DNA of 64,000 bases from Chloroflexota bacterium (GCA_036752825.1 DAIORV010000003.1:3674-67673); one strand, 5' to 3'. Positions 53,944 to 63,930 are shown, counted from the first letter of the stretch. Notes: a model not told the origin generated them from the sequence alone. Numbers and translations are program-made.

Positions 53944-54047
53944 TTCGCGAGCGACCGACTAAGCCGTTCGCCTGATATGTAGGGCTCGTAAAGGAATTCT
54001 CCGGCACCAAATGCCGGTTCAGGGCTGTGGCGAGAGAAGTCCCTCCG

Positions 54048-54072
54048 GTGCGTGGTTTAGTATACCACGCAC
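54048..54072 (-). promoter_or_regulatory. lon extended -10 (TGgTATACT) embedded in a perfect 9-7-9 inverted repeat
   Basis: GTGCGTGGT-ATACTAA-ACCACGCAC on the minus strand. Confidence 0.6.
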
Positions 54073-54103
54073 AGTTTGCTTTAGTGCGGAACTATAAAGG
54101 ATT

Positions 54104-54138
54104 GCGGCCTGAGCCGACCATCCCGCTGCTTAGGCCGC
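54104..54138 (-). terminator. Hairpin spanning the selD stop
   Basis: GCGGCCTAAGC...GCTCAGGCCGC followed by AATCCTTT, one mismatch on this strand. Confidence 0.45.
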
Positions 54139-55170
54139 TACCGTAACGACTGTCTCGCCCGCCGGAGCCGCTACATGACCTACGCAGACGGCAATTGAAG
54201 CTCGCCCAATCCGTCGAATTAGACCCATTGCGGAGGCCTCCGGTAAGGCGATCAGTAGGCCTCCTGAGGTCTGAGGGTCGGCCAGCAAAAGCCGGGAGGT
54301 CTCATCGACTCCGTTCAGCCATCGCACCGATTCGGCAAGGTACTCGAGATTAGTGTGGGTGCCCGCCGGCGAGTATCCGCTCTTCGCATACTCTTCGGCG
54401 CCGGGCAGGAGCGGTACATCATGAGCCGAAATGTGGGCGTCAACTCCAGAGGCCCGGCAGACATCGAGAAGATGCCCTAGCAGCCCGTAACCCGACACAT
54501 CGGTACAGGCACTGGCGCCCGACACGACCATGCTCTCGCTCGCTGCGCGGTTCAGCTTCGTCATCCAGGCCACGGCGCTATTCGTATGCGCCCGCGACGC
54601 GGCCTGGTTCTTGAGGGCCGTGCCGACGACTCCCGTGCCAATGGGTTTTGTCAGGATCAACCTATCCCCGGGCTGCGCCCCTCGGGTCGTCACCATTGAC
54701 TTGGGTTCGACCGTTCCCGTTACGGACAGGCCATACTTCGGCTCCTCGTCGTCTACGGTGTGTCCGCCGATGATGCTGATTCCTGCTTCAGCAGCCATGT
54801 CCGCTCCGCCGCGCAAGATCGCCGTCAGCACATCTACCGGCAGCGTCTTTATGGGAAACCCGACGACGTTGAGAGCGTGTAGAGGGCGTCCGCCGACCGC
54901 GTAGACGTCGCTAAGCGAGTTTGCCGCCGCGATCCTTCCGAAGTCATACGGATCGTCAACTATGGGCGTGAAGAAGTCGACTGTCTGGACAAGGGCGAGC
55001 CGATCCGACAGCCGATAGACGGCAGCGTCATCAGCCGGATTGTCGCCAAGCAACAGATTGGCATCTGGACGCCGTGGGAGTTGACGCAACACGTGCGCCA
55101 GGTCAGTCTGGCTGACCTTGCTGGCTCAACCGGCGCAGCGCACGAGCGACGTAAGTCGCACAGGCTCCAT
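54130..55170 (-). CDS. selD: Selenophosphate synthetase, selenocysteine-containing (UGA at codon 15)
   Basis: AAGGAGGAG RBS, then MEPVRLTSLVRCAG-UGA-ASKVSQTDL in frame with the tracked ORF. Motifs DDAAVY, QTVDFFTP, AANSLSDVYA, GGHT, TDVSGYGLLGH, DPQTSGGLL. Confidence 0.96.
55097..55125 (-). ncRNA. Candidate bacterial SECIS hairpin immediately 3' of the selD UGA
   Basis: GCC-AGCA-AGGUCAG-CCAGA-CUGACCU-GGC, 10 bp with a 4-nt bulge, starting at the first base after UGA. Confidence 0.6.
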
Positions 55171-55191
55171 GGCTCCTCCTTCCATTGCTGT

Positions 55192-56259
55192 TCAGGCTCC
55201 GGAAACCGATGACTCGGCAGGCGTCAGCGCGGCCAAGACCGCGTCGACCAGCTTGTCCGCTCCCCCTTTGACCGGGTCGGCCCCGGGGAGGTCGGTTTCG
55301 GCTTCGGTCTGACGTACCGCTCGCGCGGCCTCCTGGTTTGAGAGACCCCTGGTGTTCAGTGCGATTGCCACTACGCGGGCAGGCTTGATCCATCCGGCAG
55401 CCTCTTCGTAAATCTGTATCACTCGAGGGAGGGAAGGAATGGTCACAGGATAGTCATCGATCTGCCGGTGACCTGGAGGGTGCACGAGAACCATGGCATC
55501 GGGAAGCGATCCATGCATGAGTGCTAGGGTGACGCCGGAGTACGCAGGGTGGAGGAGCGATCCTTGTCCCTCCACGAACACCCAGTCGGCGAGCTCGCAA
55601 GCTTCGACCACGAGGTTCTCGACGGCACCGGCCATGAAGTCGCCGATGGCGCGATCTATAGCTATGCCGCTGCCTTCCAACATGATGCCCGTCTGGCCGG
55701 TCGCGACGAAGGCGGTTGAGAGCCCGCGTGCGTCGGCGGCCTGCCGCATCTCCAGTGCTGCCGTCATCTTCCCAACCGCGCAATCGCTGCCGACGAATGT
55801 GATCACGTGAGAGCCGGCCCGATGTTGCAGCATCTCGGAAGTACTGAGATTCTCCGGAACGCGTCTCACGTCCACGATCTGGGCACCGTGTCGGCGGGCG
55901 AGCGCCTTGAATTCCGTGTCCTCCGCCATCATGTAATGCAAGCCATTAACGACGTCGACTCCGCTTTGGAGGGCCAGAGCTATTTGCCGGCGCCACTCCG
56001 GCGGGAGAAAACCTCCGCGGGTAGCAATTCCAATGAGAAGCTCGTCGGGCCGATATTTCAGCGCATCGGACATGTCGCCGACGATCGGAACTTGACCGCC
56101 AATGCCTAACACGTCCTGAGACACGGCTCCGGCATGGTGTGAGTCGACGATGGCTACCACATCGCTTGGGCGATATCTCAGGATGCTGGTAGCAGTCTTG
56201 CCATGATGGAAATCCAGCATTCCGTCGGCAAGAATCGCCATCGTCCGGCGCTTGCTCAT
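55192..56259 (-). CDS. DUF1611 family protein (DgcN D-glutamate N-acetyltransferase-like)
   Basis: KTATSILRY, LLIGIA, VVNGLH, GSDCAVGKMT, ATGQTG, DFMAGAVE, VEGQGSLLHPAYSG. Confidence 0.9.
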   Translation of the reverse strand: MSKRRTMAILADGMLDFHHGKTATSILRYRPSDVVAIVDSHHAGAVSQDVLGIGGQVPIVGDMSDALKYRPDELLIGIATRGGFLPPEWRRQIALALQSGVDVVNGLHYMMAEDTEFKALARRHGAQIVDVRRVPENLSTSEMLQHRAGSHVITFVGSDCAVGKMTAALEMRQAADARGLSTAFVATGQTGIMLEGSGIAIDRAIGDFMAGAVENLVVEACELADWVFVEGQGSLLHPAYSGVTLALMHGSLPDAMVLVHPPGHRQIDDYPVTIPSLPRVIQIYEEAAGWIKPARVVAIALNTRGLSNQEAARAVRQTEAETDLPGADPVKGGADKLVDAVLAALTPAESSVSGA

Positions 56260-56291
56260 TTGCTGCCTCGGTGGATCAGAATTTCTCCAGT

Positions 56292-56939
56292 TTATCCTTG
56301 CGTGCCGGGAGCCGGTGGCTCCTTGGCACGACCTCGTACCTCCTCGGGCAGCGTCTGTCGCCACACGTGCACTAGTCTCTGCACGGCGGTGAAATGGGTC
56401 AGGACGGCAAGAATCCACAGCGCAACGACGACCGTTTTCCCTGTCGCTGGACCAGGAAAAACGAGTCCTGCTCCGAGAATCAGGACGCGCTCGGGACGCG
56501 GAGCTATGCCCACCTTCGCGTCGAGCCCCAGACCTTCGGCGCGGGCACGCGCGTAGCTGATCATGATCGACCCGACTGCAACCGCGTACACGAGCACGGC
56601 CGTGCCGATGTGGTCCAGCTTTGCCTCGACGTAGAGCAGCCCGAGGAGGATGGCGCTTTCTGAATACCGGTCGAGCACGGAATCAAGAAAAGCTCCAAAG
56701 CGGCTGGGCCGGTTGATTACACGTGCCATTGCCCCGTCCAGCATGTCGAAAGCTGCGGAGAACAGCAGCAGCGCACCTCCGGTGCTCAGACGTCCGCTCG
56801 CTATGACGGCGGCAGTCAGCACGTTGAGTGCGAAGCCAACGATGGTAATGCTGTTGGGGGTGACCCCGAACCGCACCAATGGGCGTACGACCGCTTCGGC
56901 CGCTCCTCGGGCCCAATTCTGGACCGAAGCCGGGAACAC
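56292..56939 (-). CDS. pgsA: CDP-alcohol phosphatidyltransferase, phosphatidylinositol-phosphate synthase type
   Basis: TPNSIT, DMLDGAMAR...GAFLDSVLD, SYARARAE, RPER. Confidence 0.9.
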   Translation of the reverse strand: MFPASVQNWARGAAEAVVRPLVRFGVTPNSITIVGFALNVLTAAVIASGRLSTGGALLLFSAAFDMLDGAMARVINRPSRFGAFLDSVLDRYSESAILLGLLYVEAKLDHIGTAVLVYAVAVGSIMISYARARAEGLGLDAKVGIAPRPERVLILGAGLVFPGPATGKTVVVALWILAVLTHFTAVQRLVHVWRQTLPEEVRGRAKEPPAPGTQG

Positions 56940-56941
56940 GC

Positions 56942-58126
56942 TTACAGCGCCAGGCCGCTCGTCGAAAGCGCCTCCGCTGCATAGGTCGGGAAGGTACGCG
57001 TGCCGGTCCGCACGTAGAAGTCGACCACCTGCTCGGCGATCCTATCCCAGGAATAGAGCCTGGCGGTCTCCCTTCCCCTCTGACCCATGGCTTCAGCGGC
57101 CGTTCTGTCTTGGAGGAGGGCGCATACGGCCTCGGCCAGGGCGCGCTCGTTGCGCGGCGGGACCATTATCCCTTCGTTCCCCTGCGTCATGACCTGCCGA
57201 TAGCCCTCGATGTCGGAAGCGACGACGGGTACGCCAGACGCCATGGCTTCGAGGAGGACAATGCCGAAGCTTTCGCCCTGGGTCGCGGGAGCACAGAACG
57301 CGTCGGCAGACCTGAGGTAGCGGGGCAGGTCGTCCTCACTCACCCTCCCCACGACGACGATGTCGTGTAGACGGTGGCGCTTTATGTAGGCGGTGTACGG
57401 CGAGTCCTCCCAATCGCCGGCACCCACAATGATGAACCGTGCGTCTGGGAAGGCTTCTTTGACCTGCGGATAGGCGCGCAACAGATAACCCACGCCTTTT
57501 CTCTTCTCGGGCCTGCCGACGAAGAGAATGTTTGGTCTGCCGTCGCAAAACTGAGGTAAGGGCTCCAGGCTCTCGGGCGCAAATCTTGCCAGCTCGACCC
57601 CATTGGGAATGACCCTGTAAGGTGCCATGAAGTACTGGCGCACGAAGCGCTTGGCAGCTCTAGACACAGCGATTCTGCCGTCGAGCTGGCGGAAGGCAAA
57701 GCGCAGAACCGGTCTTCCATAAAAGTAGCCGTAGTAAGAACCGCGGTAGGCGTGAAAGGTTCCAACGTTCAGAGCTTCCGAGTAGCGGAGCACGGTCGGA
57801 GGCAACGACGGCATCAGGGGTTCGTGGACGTGCACCACATCGAACTGCTCGGACTCCAGAACCTCCCGAACTCGCCGTGCCAATCGAAAGGAGAGCGTGA
57901 TGCGCGCAATCGAACCGTTCGCCGGAACTCGCCGAACGCGACCGATCCGGTAGACGTCCGTCTCTTCGCGCTCAATGTTTCGATTTGAAGACGGCGCCAT
58001 GATCCGGACTTCGTGTCCCATCGCCACGAACTCCCGGTGAAGGTGCATCACGTGGTTGGTCACACCACCCGGATACGGATAGTCGTACGGGGACACGAGG
58101 GCGATCTTCAACCGCCTTCCCCGCAC
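56942..58126 (-). CDS. pimA: GT4 phosphatidylinositol mannosyltransferase-like
   Basis: IALVSPY...PGGVTNHV, HVHEP, GTFH, IPNGV, RKG, ESFGIVLLEAMA, plus operon context. Confidence 0.85.
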   Translation of the reverse strand: MRGRRLKIALVSPYDYPYPGGVTNHVMHLHREFVAMGHEVRIMAPSSNRNIEREETDVYRIGRVRRVPANGSIARITLSFRLARRVREVLESEQFDVVHVHEPLMPSLPPTVLRYSEALNVGTFHAYRGSYYGYFYGRPVLRFAFRQLDGRIAVSRAAKRFVRQYFMAPYRVIPNGVELARFAPESLEPLPQFCDGRPNILFVGRPEKRKGVGYLLRAYPQVKEAFPDARFIIVGAGDWEDSPYTAYIKRHRLHDIVVVGRVSEDDLPRYLRSADAFCAPATQGESFGIVLLEAMASGVPVVASDIEGYRQVMTQGNEGIMVPPRNERALAEAVCALLQDRTAAEAMGQRGRETARLYSWDRIAEQVVDFYVRTGTRTFPTYAAEALSTSGLAL

Positions 58127-58202
58127 GGTGCGAGGTTTTCATGAGCCGGTGCATCTGCGTCTTCGGCCTGACCTGAGAGGCCATTCAGCTCATGCCACCC
58201 GC

Positions 58203-59132
58203 TCATAGCACTTCCTCAGTTTGGTGATTTATGGTAGCAGCCAGTTCAGCAGGTCCCGCCCGGCGCCACATCGGCGAAAAGTTGAGCCACTGCCCCGGGT
58301 AACGTCGGATGAGCGCCTCCATTTCTGCTACGACGCGGCCGATGTTTTGAAGATCGTCCGACTCCGAATTTTCCGACCGAGTAATAGGTATCGGTCCTAT
58401 CACGTGAGCTGCGAATGTGTCATCTCCCCGTCGGATGCCAACACCAAGCAACAATGTCGACCCGGTGCGGCGCGCTAGGGAGACCGGGCCGCGCGGAAGG
58501 GCAGTGAATCGCCCGAAAAAGCGCGTCTCCAGACCTCCGCGTCCGCCTATCATGCGGTCAGCCGCCAGGCCCACGATCTCGCCCGCTCGCAGAGCCCTGA
58601 TCAGCTCTCGGGGGGCCTGGTCGAGGGGCACCACCCTCACTCCTTTGCTGGTGCGCAAGTCGACCAGGAAATCAAAAAGCGCCTGCGGCTGCATGCGTTC
58701 CACGGGCACAATCATCCGGTATCCGCGCTGCGCGAGCACCTGGCCAACCATGTCGTAGTTCCCCAAATGCATCGTCGCCAGGACGACTCCCTTACCGCGG
58801 GATACGGCCTCCGCCAGGCGATCCCAGTGATCGATCTCAACCTGTGCTTCAATTTCCGCACCCGTCGTTCTGCGGATGCGCAACGTGTCTATCCAGTTCT
58901 TAGCGTCCGTGCGAAAGGCTTCGACCGCCAAAGGCCTGAGCTTCCGGTCGTTGGGCGAAGTTTCCATCACCACCGCAAGGTTTTCCAACACCGCACGGCG
59001 AGGTCTTGAGAAGAGCAGAAATGCGAGCTTCCCCGCGGAGTCGGACAGCGAATGGGCCACAGATACGGGAATGAGAGGAAGAGCCCAAGCGGCGATTCGC
59101 AGGACTACGTACAGTGCGAGGTTGGGGATCAT
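58203..59132 (-). CDS. PatA/LpxL-family acyltransferase (copy 2)
   Basis: HLGNYD, LAADR, FFGR-TALPRGP, PGQW. Confidence 0.88.
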   Translation of the reverse strand: MIPNLALYVVLRIAAWALPLIPVSVAHSLSDSAGKLAFLLFSRPRRAVLENLAVVMETSPNDRKLRPLAVEAFRTDAKNWIDTLRIRRTTGAEIEAQVEIDHWDRLAEAVSRGKGVVLATMHLGNYDMVGQVLAQRGYRMIVPVERMQPQALFDFLVDLRTSKGVRVVPLDQAPRELIRALRAGEIVGLAADRMIGGRGGLETRFFGRFTALPRGPVSLARRTGSTLLLGVGIRRGDDTFAAHVIGPIPITRSENSESDDLQNIGRVVAEMEALIRRYPGQWLNFSPMWRRAGPAELAATINHQTEEVL

Positions 59133-60058
59133 CTCTCCCCGGAACCTGTGGGCAACGCCTCACCGGCTCCGATCCCGACCGGGCTCTGCGCCGGCGGCCA
59201 CATCGGGCGAAACATATACCACTGATCGGGTCTCGCACGAACTACCGATTGCAGAATGTCTATGAGCCTTTGCATGATCGCTTGAAGGTCCTTGTCCTTC
59301 TCTCCGGTTGCAGTCCATGTCACGGGCGGATAGATCACGCTTTCAAACGAGCGATCGGGCTGGCGGTACATGAACACCGGAAGTAAGGCTGCCCCCGTTT
59401 TCATGGCGAGGAGTGCTGGACCGGCCGGCACCGCGGTCTCACGGCCGAAGAAGCGAACGGGAACGCCTTTGTCTCGTTGGACGGGACGGTCGAACAGCAT
59501 GGTCAACGTGCCACCTGAACGGAGCACCCGGAACATCTCACGGACGTTGCTTACGCCGACCAGATTGATACCTTTCTCGCGTCGCTTCCGCTGGATCAAG
59601 CGGTCGAGATACTCGGGTCGGAAGGTGTCGTATACGGCGTGGAAATCTGTGAAATCCGCGAGTCGCAGCCCACCCACTTCGATCGTCCCGAAATGCGCGC
59701 TGGCCAGAATCACCCCTTTGCCTTCGTCCAGTGCATCCTGCAGATTTTCAAGCCCCGTGATCTTCATGGAGGCCACGGTCTTGTGCTCCGAGTCGAGGTT
59801 GGGAAGATCGAGAAATTCCACCAGGTACTTACAGTAATTGCGTATCGACTTCAGCGCGAAATGTCTGACGCGCGGATCTCGAGGAGGCAGGTCAAGCACG
59901 GTCGCCGTGTTTGCCAGAAGCACATTTCGCTTGTCCCCCCAAAGTCCCCAGACGAAGAAGACAAGGTCGCCCACGGCGGTACCGATTAGGTAGCGCCACG
60001 GGCGAGGAATGAAACGGGAGAGGAAGGCGCCTACCTGAATGACCAGATACAGCGCCAT
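59129..60058 (-). CDS. PatA/LpxL-family acyltransferase (copy 1)
   Basis: HFGTIE, LFDR, FFGRETAVPAGPA, RPDQWYMFRPMW. Confidence 0.88.
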   Translation of the reverse strand: MALYLVIQVGAFLSRFIPRPWRYLIGTAVGDLVFFVWGLWGDKRNVLLANTATVLDLPPRDPRVRHFALKSIRNYCKYLVEFLDLPNLDSEHKTVASMKITGLENLQDALDEGKGVILASAHFGTIEVGGLRLADFTDFHAVYDTFRPEYLDRLIQRKRREKGINLVGVSNVREMFRVLRSGGTLTMLFDRPVQRDKGVPVRFFGRETAVPAGPALLAMKTGAALLPVFMYRQPDRSFESVIYPPVTWTATGEKDKDLQAIMQRLIDILQSVVRARPDQWYMFRPMWPPAQSPVGIGAGEALPTGSGER

Positions 60059-60066
60059 CGCGGCCC

Positions 60067-61176
60067 CTAACTCACGCTGGGAGCGGGGACGGCGGCGTCG
60101 ACTCGCGCGGTGGCGCTGATGAAAGCCTCGGTCATCTCGCGGGCCTGCTCGTCCTTGTATTGAATGGGTGGGGACTTCATGAAGTAGGACGCCGGTCCTT
60201 CGAGGGCGCCCGAGATGCCGTGGTCTAGCCCCAGCTTGCAGCACCGGACAGCGTCGATTACCACGCCCGCAGAGTTGGGCGAGTCCCACACCTCGAGCTT
60301 CAGCTCGACGTTGAGCGGCACATCGCCAAACGAGCGTCCCTCCATGCGGATATAGGCCCATTTACGATCGCTGAGCCAGGCGACATAGTCGCTGGGACCG
60401 ATGTGAACGTTCTCGGCTCCAATGTCGTAGTCGAGCTGCGACGTGACGGCATTCGTCTTTGAGATCTTCTTCGATTCGAGCCGCTCGCGCTCGAGCATGT
60501 TCAGAAAGTCGGTGTTGCCGCCAACATTGAGCTGACTGGTCCGTTCCACGCGCACGCCGCGATCCTTGAAGAGGTTGGTGAGGACGCGATGGACGATGGT
60601 GGCTCCAACCTGGGACTTGATATCGTCCCCAATGACAGGGAGGCCGGCCTCTTTGAAGCGTCCCTGCCAGTACGGCTCTCGGGCGATGAAGACAGGTATG
60701 CAATTAACGAACGCACATCCGGCTCGCAAGATCTGCTCGACGTACCACTTGGTCGCCTCCTCGCTTCCAACGGGAAGGTAGCTGACCACCACATCTGTTT
60801 TCGTGTCGTTGAGAATTTGAACGACGTTGGCCGTCGGGCCGGGCGCCTTGGTAATGACCTCTGAGAGGTACTTTCCCAAACCATCGTGGGTCATTCCTCG
60901 TTCGACCTTGACCCCCGCAAACGGTGCATCGGCGAAGCGAAAGGTGTTGTTTTGCCCTGAATAAATCGCTTCCGACAGGTCCTTGCCTACCTTCTCCACG
61001 TCGACATCGAAGGCGCAGCTGAACTCGATGTCTCGAATGTGGTAGCCGCCGAGGTTCACATGCATCAGACCCGGGATCTGCTCGTCTTCGGCGGCGTTCT
61101 TGTAGTACTCCACACCCTGGACCAGCGAGGACGCGCAATTGCCGACACCGATGATTCCCACTCTTACTTTCGACAT
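60067..61176 (-). CDS. ino1: myo-inositol-1-phosphate synthase
   Basis: [70 protein letters not shown]. Confidence 0.97.
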
Positions 61177-61192
61177 ACCAAGTCTCCTTTCG

Positions 61193-61525
61193 TCATCTCC
61201 GTGATGCCGGCTCCAACGAACGTGGGGCTTCGGCAGCTTCTTGTTGATCAACCCTCTCTAGACCGAATGTTTCTTCGACGCGAAGGCCGTATCCCTGGAG
61301 AACGCGCCTGTTGAGGGAACACAAAACTTGACGCCCTGTCCGCTGGGTTTTCACGATACCTGACCGCCGAAGGATGCGAAGATGCCAGGATATCAAAGGC
61401 TGGCTGAGTCTGAGCTCGGCGCCCAGCTGGGTGACGCTGACCTGCTCGTGCAATGCCAGGTACAGCGCGATGCGAAACCGCTTGCGGTCGCCCAACGCGC
61501 GAAAATACAGCGACAGGTCCTGCAC
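61193..61525 (-). CDS. ArsR/SmtB-family transcriptional regulator
   Basis: [40 protein letters not shown]. No recognisable metal-binding motif. Confidence 0.9.
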
Positions 61526-61623
61526 CTCTCCGCCCCTTCATCCATAAAGCATTATTCAATAAAGCCGCGTTTATATGTTACCGACTCTGCGCGTGGCCGT
61601 CAACTCGACTCGGGGACGGAAAG

Positions 61624-63360
61624 CTAGCTGGCAGCGGCCTCGGTCTCCCGCTCCTCAACCGGCTCGAAGGCGGGCTGATCCCTCCCTAACGTCAGCTGGT
61701 AACGTCGCGAGAAGAAGGGGTTCAGCTCGGTCGCTTCAGTTATCGCCTCGAAGGGAAATGTGGCTGTTTCGGGAGCAATGAAGAACGGAAACATCTGAAC
61801 CCCGCCTAGTCCACCGTGTGCGCCACCGTGATCCTCGAAATTGACGACCAATCTGCCGTCGAAAGCGCCGAAGACCATCATGTCTCCACCGCTCGGCATG
61901 CTGGCCAAACGGATGAGCTGATCGCGCAGGATCGCAGGATCATCGAAGAGCCGAAGGAATTCCACCTCTTCGCTCGAAGCGTCCTCCAGGATCACGTGTG
62001 CGTCGCCGAAGAGAACGTGCGTCTGTTCGCGGTCGCGCATGAGGATGATGCCGATGCCCGGATGCTGAGCAAGAGCTTTCAACAGACCTGGTGCGGCGGA
62101 ATCGATCTCGGCCACTCCCAGCCGATGGCCCGCGTGCATGAAATACACGTTGGCCAGCGCACTCGAGTAGATTGCGAGGACCGGACTGTCCTTGTCTTCG
62201 GCCAGGCCGGCTTGAAGCGGGCCGGTTCCGATCCGCATGGCCAGGCGCATGGCACGATCGACCATGAAGCTCGTGAACCCGCTGGTCTTGGGACCGATCT
62301 CTGCTGACAGCTCCTCCACCTGCTGAAGCGTAGCCAGATCCTTGTACGGCCTCGTGTCCAGCTCACTTGCCGCCGGCGGATTGACCCCGTGACCCGCGAT
62401 GAACTGACCAAGTGTCTGGCCATACAAATGATGGAAGGGAAGGGATTCCGTCATGCCGTGGTCACTCATCACGTACAGGTCGTAAGGGCGCAGGGCAACC
62501 ATGTCTATCGCCTTCTTGACGTCTCGAATCTGCCGATCGAGGGCGCGCAGAGAACGATACGCGGCTGTGCTGCGAGGGCCAAGATGATGTGCCACCTCGT
62601 CGTACCCGATGTAGTTCGCGTAGATTGCCGGAACGCCTCGAAAAATATCGAGCCGGATTCCAAGGGTAGTCAGCTCGCGAAAGAGGACGTGCGTGAAGGC
62701 TCGCGTCAACGGAAAAATACCTTCGGGTGCCACGTATCTGCCTCGGAGGCGGCCAACGGCCTGCTCGTACAGCTCGATGAACACCTCGGCAACCGTGAGT
62801 CCGGCGGCGCGCATCAAGCGCCATGGGTTCAATACCAGGAGCAGAAGTACGTCGATTCCGGTAAGCTTTGGTGGGAAGCTTGTCCTGCCCAGGGCGCTGG
62901 TGGTGAAAGCGGCTCGCTGCGCCCCGCCCGCGGCCATACCCATATACACACTGCCGTGGCGAAACAGGCCCGCTCGTCCCTCGGCGTTGTCGGTCTCGAC
63001 CGCCGCCATGTCGAGCGGCCAGGAACAGATGATCGGCCGGCCCTTTGCTCGGTTGTACCAGTAGAAGCCGGGCACGTCCTTCTTGCTGCCGTACATCAGA
63101 GCGCATTGGATCGCCGCCGTATCGCTCGGTGCTCCAGGCCGCCAGCGATGTAGCTGATGACCGGCGCCGAGTATTTTCTTCAAATGAGGAAGATGACCGG
63201 CGTCCATCGCTCGCGTTAAGTCCTCGTGCGACAACGCGTCGATCTGCAGGATCACGAAGCCTCGGCGGCGCCGCTCGATTTCGCTGTATGGAAGCTGCAA
63301 TCGCCGAAGCGTAAGTCCGGCCTTGAGGGCGCCGACAGTGCGGCGCAGAGAAAAGCGCAA
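61624..63360 (-). CDS. AlkP-superfamily protein (Thr nucleophile, membrane-associated type)
   Basis: TTG after GGAG. Motifs LQIDAL, PSDT, YDEVAHH, MSDHG, HGGLGG, with an internal hydrophobic segment. Confidence 0.8.
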   Translation of the reverse strand: MRFSLRRTVGALKAGLTLRRLQLPYSEIERRRRGFVILQIDALSHEDLTRAMDAGHLPHLKKILGAGHQLHRWRPGAPSDTAAIQCALMYGSKKDVPGFYWYNRAKGRPIICSWPLDMAAVETDNAEGRAGLFRHGSVYMGMAAGGAQRAAFTTSALGRTSFPPKLTGIDVLLLLVLNPWRLMRAAGLTVAEVFIELYEQAVGRLRGRYVAPEGIFPLTRAFTHVLFRELTTLGIRLDIFRGVPAIYANYIGYDEVAHHLGPRSTAAYRSLRALDRQIRDVKKAIDMVALRPYDLYVMSDHGMTESLPFHHLYGQTLGQFIAGHGVNPPAASELDTRPYKDLATLQQVEELSAEIGPKTSGFTSFMVDRAMRLAMRIGTGPLQAGLAEDKDSPVLAIYSSALANVYFMHAGHRLGVAEIDSAAPGLLKALAQHPGIGIILMRDREQTHVLFGDAHVILEDASSEEVEFLRLFDDPAILRDQLIRLASMPSGGDMMVFGAFDGRLVVNFEDHGGAHGGLGGVQMFPFFIAPETATFPFEAITEATELNPFFSRRYQLTLGRDQPAFEPVEERETEAAAS

Positions 63361-63438
63361 GGGTATACTCCGGCGACCAGGCGTCAAAGGCGCCCGATTG
63401 TAGCCAGCCAGGGTATGCCCTACAAAGGCGGGACTGAC

Positions 63439-63930
63439 ATGTTGCCGACACAAAATGAACGGCTCACCCATCTGAATGAGGCTGGGGAGGCTCGGATGGT
63501 CGACGTCACCGAAAAGCACATGACCGTCAGGGAAGCGACGGCCCATGGCCGCGTGGTGATGCAATCAAGGACGCTGGAGCTGATACGGGATCACTCGCTC
63601 GCCAAAGGGGACGTTCTGGCCGTGGCTCGCGTAGCGGGGGTCATGGCTGCGAAGCGGACTTCCGAGCTGATCCCGCTCTGCCACGGCCTGCCCGTCTCGT
63701 TCGTTGAGATCGAGTTCTCGCTCGACGAGAGCACGGCGTCGCTCGAGATCCTGGCGAGAGTGAGAGTCGAGGCAAGAACGGGCGTCGAGATGGAGGCCCT
63801 GACCGCGGTGGCGGTCGCGGGCCTAACCATCTACGACATGTGCAAATCGGTCGATCGTGGCATGAGGATCACGGACGTGCGTCTGACGCTGAAGTCGGGG
63901 GGCAAGAGCGGCTCCTACGAGGCCCTCTAA
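63439..63930 (+). CDS. moaC: Cyclic pyranopterin monophosphate synthase
   Basis: LTHLNEAGEARMVDV, KGDVL, LIPLCH, TGVEMEALT, IYDMCKSVD, KSGGKSG. Confidence 0.97.
   Translation: MLPTQNERLTHLNEAGEARMVDVTEKHMTVREATAHGRVVMQSRTLELIRDHSLAKGDVLAVARVAGVMAAKRTSELIPLCHGLPVSFVEIEFSLDESTASLEILARVRVEARTGVEMEALTAVAVAGLTIYDMCKSVDRGMRITDVRLTLKSGGKSGSYEAL

Follow-up and report, generated by a model that had tools for sequence, protein, structure and literature searches.

A six-gene operon on the minus strand of a 64,000-nucleotide stretch of DNA from a Chloroflexota bacterium (GCA_036752825.1, DAIORV010000003.1:3674-67673; hereafter, the window) is predicted to direct the de novo synthesis of an acylated phosphatidylinositol mannoside (PIM). 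In the order of transcription, the genes arsR-ino1-AT1-AT2-pimA-pgsA (56292-61525) encode an ArsR-type regulator, an inositol phosphate synthase, two acyltransferases related to the mycobacterial PatA (here AT1 and AT2), a PimA-like mannosyltransferase and a phosphatidylinositol-phosphate (PIP) synthase. The operon is a variant of the known PIM pathway with two acyltransferases. The reading that we favor, with a probability of about 0.6, is that of an ArsR-led operon for the de novo pathway in which AT1 would perform the PatA step and AT2 would attach a second acyl chain at another hydroxyl.

Gene content of the operon

Family and structure matches identify all six genes (Table 1), in agreement with an earlier sequence-only reading of the region that had described arsR-ino1-acylT-acylT-pimA-pgsA as a single unit for the synthesis of phosphatidylinositol (PI) or PIM-type lipids. 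The gene identities support this type of lipid, and the motifs quoted in that reading, namely HFGTIE and HLGNYD in the two acyltransferases and SYxRARAE and RxER in the PIP synthase (as SYARARAE and RPER), are all present. Ino1 exceeds the cut-off of PF01658 (129.5 bits, E 7e-38; cut-off 27) and stays under the cut-off of TIGR03450 (638 bits), so that its fold and family are clear and the protein lies outside the actinobacterial equivalog. The PimA-like protein matches PimA of Mycobacterium smegmatis over residues 2-373 (2gej, E 4.6e-62; 4n9w, E 3.6e-61), and its match to PimB' (3okc, E 1.5e-21) is far weaker than that to PimA over the full length. The best additional glycosyltransferase of the GT4 family in the genome, encoded at C2:57725-58888, was considered for the role of PimB' and rejected because it resembles BshA-like enzymes.

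The closest solved relatives of the PIP synthase are themselves PIP synthases (6wm5, E 4.6e-30; 6h53, E 5.9e-29), and the motif DxxDGxxAR...GxxxDxxxD is present as DMLDGAMAR...GAFLDSVLD. The protein narrowly misses the cut-offs of NF045883 (152.9 bits, cut-off 170) and NF040950 (161.7 bits, cut-off 180) and scores just 32.6 bits with TIGR00560 (pgsA). Elsewhere in the same genome (G000:C22:17614-22140), another CDP-alcohol transferase that resembles PIP synthases and shares 43% identity with that of the window is encoded next to genes for DedA/VTT, PAP2_3, a Gfo/Idh/MocA oxidoreductase and a putative class-III aminotransferase open reading frame (ORF); the locus may be a second cluster for an inositol-derived lipid head group.

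Organization and predicted regulation

The six co-directional genes form one tightly packed unit, with intergenic spacing of -4 to 76 bp. The ATG of AT2 overlaps the stop codon of AT1 as ATGA, the start of the PIP-synthase gene lies 1-3 bp beyond the pimA stop, and the ino1 ATG at 61176 is preceded by GGAGA. The true start of AT1 is the ATG at 60058, 8 bp past the ino1 stop; a longer ORF of 410 aa would overlap ino1. A scan of positions 54000-63800 yielded a sole sigma-70-like site on the minus strand, upstream of arsR, the TTGAC and TAAnAT hexamers of which are conserved in an alignment with most of six relatives. No terminator-like sites were found by a scan between the operon genes, the single minus-strand match in the operon being located inside AT2. 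The prediction that the six genes form one operon behind a single conserved promoter, with co-transcription deduced from how closely the genes are spaced and from the search for promoters, is well supported.

Just downstream of the -10 hexamer are ATAA-N-TTAT inverted repeats, ATAAACGCGGCTTTAT and ATAATGCTTTAT, in which the A/T columns are invariant across 7 relatives and which are the likely ArsR operator. Of 56 loci, 42 have a homologue of arsR no more than 500 bp ahead of ino1. Inspection of the ArsR sequence reveals no CxC or ELCVCDL-type metal site and a single Cys, so that, lacking a metal-binding Cys motif, the protein probably is not a metal sensor. The conserved promoter, the repeats and the absence of this motif from ArsR together suggest a non-metal repressor, possibly lipid- or inositol-related, and we infer that ArsR regulates the operon.

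Table 1. Genes and regulatory elements of the predicted PIM operon, with positions counted from the first letter of the window
Feature	Position	Strand	Matches and remarks
Promoter-like TTGACG-17-TAACAT	61575..61603	-	Upstream of arsR; sigma-70-like
ATAA-N-TTAT inverted repeats	61542..61574	-	Just downstream of the -10 hexamer; candidate ArsR operator
arsR, ArsR/SmtB winged-helix regulator	61193-61525	-	First operon gene; NF033788 68.9 bits (cut-off 55); PF01022
ino1, myo-inositol-1-phosphate (inositol-3-phosphate) synthase	60067-61176	-	TIGR03450 550.6 bits, E 1.5e-165; PF01658
AT1, PatA-like acyltransferase, 309 aa	59129-60058	-	PF03279 E 8.5e-47; motif HFGTIE
AT2, second PatA-like acyltransferase, 309 aa	58203-59132	-	PF03279 E 4.9e-37; motif HLGNYD
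pimA-like GT4 mannosyltransferase	56942-58126	-	GTG start 58126; alternative TTG 58111 after GGAAGG
PIP synthase (CDP-alcohol phosphatidyltransferase)	56292-56939	-	Solved-structure matches and motif

Two PatA-like acyltransferases

AT1 and AT2 are the only PF03279-type genes of the 2.76 Mb genome. Among solved structures, both proteins match PatA best (E 3e-25 for AT1 with 5oce/5f2t, E 3e-20 for AT2), followed by LpxM. The AlphaFold2 models of the two proteins (predicted local distance difference test score 92.1 in each case) likewise match PatA, then LpxM and nothing else in the PDB, with target TM-scores of 0.83-0.89; PatA is the top Foldseek match of both AT1 (E 1e-20, root-mean-square deviation 1.9-2.6 A) and AT2 (E 8e-18, target TM-score 0.84-0.89).

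The functional residues of PatA, with roles and positions required for activity as published (PMC4792965), were mapped in PatA numbering onto 79 AT1-type and 46 AT2-type sequences. In PatA, E149, R164 and H284 of the acceptor groove are required for the transfer to PIM, and Y80, Y83 and Q287 are contact residues. The catalytic H126 of the HX4D/E block and R164 occur without exception in the AT1 clade (79/79) and in the AT2 clade (46/46), the block-3 acid (E200 in PatA) is Asp in every sequence of either type (79/79 and 46/46), and the acid at E149 is retained, as E or D in the AT1 clade and as E in the AT2 clade. The two clades part at the acceptor groove. Y80 is retained in 73 of the 79 AT1-type sequences and lost in the AT2 clade, Y83 is retained in 43 of the 79 and is Asn in 38 of the 46 AT2-type sequences, H284 is replaced in both clades, by Tyr in all 79 AT1-type sequences and by V, L or A in the AT2 type, and Q287 is another groove position that differs between them. 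In addition, a C-terminal FRPMW block is invariant in the AT1 clade only. Because the catalytic residues are kept and the groove residues differ, both AT1 and AT2 look active, with acceptor sites that appear to be shaped differently. The consensus of the AT1 clade in the catalytic motif is HFGNWD, and the HFGTIE of the AT1 in the window is an oddity at the level of the family. The resemblance of HLGNYD in AT2 to HSGNWD in PatA was considered as a clue to orthology and rejected in view of this AT1-clade consensus.

AT1 and AT2 are only 32% identical to each other, and in a maximum likelihood tree of 93 sequences they belong to separate clades, each spanning the sampled Chloroflexota (supports 92.2/76 and 84.7/82). 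The low identity and the separate clades indicate that the two genes are old paralogues and not the products of a recent duplication, which bears out the claim of the sequence-only reading that the acyltransferases have diverged and excludes the possibility, raised with it, that they are recent redundant copies. Of all genes in the operon, AT2 evolves fastest, with an identity to the nearest relatives of 39-48%, compared with 64-69% for AT1, 70-79% for PimA and 83-87% for Ino1. Two other proteins, intended as outgroups, proved to be AT1-type or AT2-type members.

Distribution among Chloroflexota

Relatives of the operon were collected by a search of genome contigs, in which the best 80 loci all come from metagenome-assembled genomes (MAGs), nearly all labelled Chloroflexota and two carrying other phylum labels. 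These loci display the fixed order (arsR)-ino1-AT1-(AT2)-(PHP)-pimA-pgsA, where PHP is a phosphoesterase gene discussed below; the recurrence of this order in 80 related loci is far beyond chance. In a survey of 301 evenly drawn Chloroflexota genomes, with counts that were read from a table and are approximate, a PatA-like gene is present in 207, about 36 of them having one copy, about 153 two and about 18 three. Two acyltransferases are the norm in this phylum and are not peculiar to the window. The AT2 type is found in lineages labelled Anaerolineae, Dehalococcoidia, Tepidiformaceae, Acidobacteriota and others. Two loci (L045:2266-5166 and L073:515-3328) contain three tandem PatA-like genes, one of the AT1 type and two of the AT2 type. 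A full-text search of the literature found no paper linking Chloroflexi to PIM genes.

Predicted pathway and roles of the two acyltransferases

We infer the lipid product and the division of labor between AT1 and AT2 from the gene content and the residue patterns described above. Ino1 would convert glucose-6-phosphate to inositol phosphate, which the PIP synthase would join to CDP-diacylglycerol, supplied by the cell's own PlsY/PlsC/CdsA route, to give PI-phosphate. A phosphatase encoded elsewhere would then strip the phosphate to yield PI, PimA would mannosylate the inositol to produce PIM1, and AT1, as the counterpart of PatA, which acts on mannose O-6, would acylate the mannose. AT2, with its remodelled acceptor groove, would most likely acylate the lipid once more, at another hydroxyl, inositol being the leading candidate. 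Both enzymes, given their PatA fold, would face the cytoplasm and presumably depend on acyl-CoA.

The best candidate for the PIP-to-PI phosphatase is a PHP-family metal phosphoesterase (PF02811 and PF13263), because its gene sits inside the operon, between the acyltransferases and pimA, in many relatives (about 30 of the 80 loci and 9 of 13 single-copy genomes). The nearest solved relatives of these proteins, for example those encoded at L017:2008-2772 and L021:8942-9640, are pAp-phosphatase-type PHP enzymes. The genome studied here encodes a homologue, 39% identical, outside the window (G000:C19:8936-9676).

Of the two paralogues, AT1 is somewhat more likely to be the counterpart of PatA. AT1, the more conserved of the two, directly follows ino1 in every locus and is the sole copy both in the single-acyltransferase clusters among the 80 loci and in 9 of the 13 single-copy genomes checked. 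Furthermore, AT1 outscores AT2 against PatA as well as against the PatA of Nonomuraea, and it groups with PatA in the IQ-TREE analysis of 93 sequences (52/82) and in an IQ-TREE -fast run that included 52 PatA-family representatives (SH-aLRT, a Shimodaira-Hasegawa-like branch test, 95). As for the other paralogue, the more specific proposal that enzymes of the AT2 type are dedicated to acylating PI-mannosides at a second site, most likely acting on inositol at the cytoplasmic face with acyl-CoA and giving rise to di-acylated PIM-type lipids, is tentative.

Several observations weigh against the pathway and the roles outlined here. The described lipids of Thermomicrobia are said to carry just one acyl group on the mannoside. 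Neither AT1 (143.8 bits) nor AT2 (150.5 bits) reaches the 209-bit cut-off of the PatA equivalog NF005919, which is reached in none of the 301 Chloroflexota genomes. In a FastTree of 175 sequences, the PatA family is placed beside AT2, with a weak support of 0.6, and PatA scores about equally against hidden Markov models of the AT1 (162 bits) and AT2 (169 bits) clades. One ino1-AT-pimA-pgsA cluster (L091, G195:C5:338880-351746) includes a single acyltransferase that is of the AT2 type (357 vs 258 bits with the hidden Markov models), and therefore AT2 is not strictly dependent on AT1; another locus, L084, possibly has an AT2-type copy alone and is cut by the contig end. A search of the genome yielded no clear PimB' and no second mannosyltransferase. 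Finally, the mycobacterial inositol acyltransferase, the enzyme being still unidentified as of 2022, has been argued by Morita and colleagues to be periplasmic and unrelated to PatA (PMC9490103). Since the mycobacterial enzyme is expected to be unrelated to PatA, a role of AT2 in this acylation would be a Chloroflexota solution and would not point to the gene used by mycobacteria.

The main rival to a second acylation site is that AT1 and AT2 acylate the same mannose O-6 and differ in the acyl donor, be it in chain length, branching or the use of acyl-CoA versus acyl carrier protein, a difference that could tune the packing of the glycolipid. PatA and LpxM select the acyl chain by means of a hydrocarbon-ruler pocket, so that paralogues can differ in the donor alone (PMC8519569); the catalytic residues of AT1 and AT2 are identical, and some genomes have just one copy, which may be of the AT1 or of the AT2 type. 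However, the consistent differences between the clades fall on the acceptor-groove positions Y80, Y83, H284 and Q287, the region of the pocket cap shows no length difference by eye in pairwise alignments, and the preservation of both copies in a fixed order across most of the phylum fits sequential steps better. On this balance, a difference in the donor alone appears unlikely.

Another alternative is that AT2 serves some other lipid, through remodelling of PI or lyso-PI or acylation of another glycolipid or of a lipoglycan anchor, and resides in the operon for co-regulation only. The low conservation of AT2 would fit such a role, in that it is 39-48% identical among relatives in which the remaining genes are 54-87% identical, as would its acceptor groove, which is unlike that of PatA, and the separation of the ino1-AT1-AT2 block from pimA-pgsA in MAGs labelled Thermomicrobiales or Chloroflexia. 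Yet AT2 always adjoins AT1 where the two occur together and is never found away from ino1 in the fetched loci, and the genome contains no further PF03279 gene. This makes a separate function in another lipid quite improbable compared with a second acylation of the PIM, which we continue to favor.

Relation to the diol lipids of Thermomicrobia

The sequence-only reading had further linked the second acyltransferase to Thermomicrobia, with one copy acylating mannose and the other inositol or a long-chain 1,2-diol backbone, and had seen in this a possible genetic origin of PIM analogues without glycerol. Diol-based phosphoinositol (acyl)mannosides have reportedly been described. According to the genome paper of Thermomicrobium roseum, the membranes of this organism are built on 1,2-diols by a pathway that is unknown (PMC2615216). 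Both acyltransferase types are present in three of the five Thermomicrobiales- or Chloroflexia-labelled loci that were checked (L050, L053 and L069), and in the other two (L055 and L075) the second acyltransferase was found by BLAST only.

The MAGs nearest to this genome bear the labels Chloroflexota or Chloroflexia and have an AT1 identity of 64-69%, compared with only 34-38% for MAGs labelled Thermomicrobiales, and no evidence assigns the genome to Thermomicrobia. A tblastn search of a plasmid collection with AT1, aimed at the T. roseum megaplasmid, produced matches in Actinobacteria and Proteobacteria only. This genome encodes PlsY (above the cut-off), CdsA and three PlsC-type acyltransferases, the latter having been looked for in this genome only, and therefore glycerol-based PI is the default expectation. 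PlsY above the cut-off and CdsA are present as well in the Thermomicrobiales-labelled MAGs L050 and L053; in the Chloroflexia-labelled MAG L069, PlsY is present and CdsA was not matched. Given that AT2 is spread across many lineages, with two copies being the commonest state in the phylum and AT2 present in about three quarters of the positive genomes, that glycerol-lipid genes are retained, and that a diol 1-phosphate would be expected to mimic lyso-phosphatidate, a substrate of the PlsC family, unlike the sugar hydroxyls on which PatA and LpxL act, the link of AT2 to the diol lipids of Thermomicrobia is unsupported and such a role seems highly improbable. Acylation of a diol phosphate would fall more naturally to a PlsC-type enzyme.

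Neighboring genes

Directly upstream of arsR, the minus strand encodes a 646-aa protein of the AlkP/phosphodiesterase superfamily (61624-63564; PF01663, E 2e-12, no NCBIfam match), which is syntenic in the closest relatives only (L004 and L006-L011). On the other side, a DUF1611/DgcN-like gene (55192-56259, minus strand; NF041892 260 bits, cut-off 480) starts 33 bp past the PIP-synthase gene with no intervening terminator and may be co-transcribed with the operon. The DUF1611 gene, SelD and the AlkP-type gene were considered as operon members and rejected because their synteny is confined to the closest relatives.

Comparison with known systems

PIM-type glycolipids have been treated as a hallmark of Actinobacteria, and a complete-looking operon in 207 of the 301 Chloroflexota genomes would make this chemistry much more widespread. 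One candidate for the enzyme that acylates PIM a second time is the additional PatA paralogue, which, if it indeed acts at a second site, would be the first gene to be assigned to this activity. If the predicted pathway is correct, the 'mycobacterial' PIM chemistry would be native to one more phylum, most of which is uncultured and in which the cultured Thermomicrobia and other isolates would provide a tractable place for its study.

The closest parallel is the actinobacterial pgsA1-patA-pimA locus (Rv2612c-Rv2610c in Mycobacterium tuberculosis), in which genes of the same PIP synthase, PatA-fold and PimA families are clustered and probably co-transcribed. By comparison, the Chloroflexota operon has two acyltransferase paralogues, ino1, an ArsR-type regulator and often the PHP phosphoesterase. 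The gene order differs as well, being ino1-AT-AT-pimA-pgsA in Chloroflexota and pgsA-patA-pimA in actinobacteria such as Nonomuraea gerenzanensis (L097); the latter locus has one acyltransferase and no ino1 within 5-6 kb, which fits the earlier statement that the mycobacterial cluster contains a single acyltransferase, with ino1 lying elsewhere.

PatA of M. smegmatis (5f2t, 5oce, 7ojt), which transfers palmitoyl to the mannose O-6 of PIM1 or PIM2, has the same fold as AT1 and AT2 and, like them, a catalytic His, an acid in block 3, R164 and an acid at E149, and its N-terminal membrane-anchor helices have counterparts in both proteins. Nevertheless, AT1 and AT2 are only 26-30% identical to PatA; in block 3 they carry Asp, which is also found in LpxM, rather than the Glu of PatA, H284 is substituted by Tyr in AT1 and by an aliphatic residue in AT2, and AT2 additionally lacks Y80 and Y83. 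The lipid A acyltransferases LpxL and LpxM (for example, Acinetobacter baumannii LpxM, 5kn7) belong to the same PF03279 family and have the same fold, and the HFGTWE motif of LpxM resembles the HFGTIE of the window AT1. The matches to LpxM (E 1e-13 for AT1 and 9e-9 for AT2) are much weaker than those to PatA in the same comparison (1e-25 and 1e-20), and there is no lipid A context. Finally, the BT_1522-BT_1526 cluster of Bacteroides thetaiotaomicron, which encodes MIPS, PIPS, a PIP phosphatase and PI-DHC synthase, is another bacterial cluster in which ino1 is combined with a PIP-synthase gene (bioRxiv 10.1101/2021.04.26.441525), but it includes neither PimA nor an acyltransferase of the PatA type, and the lipid it makes is an inositol sphingolipid.

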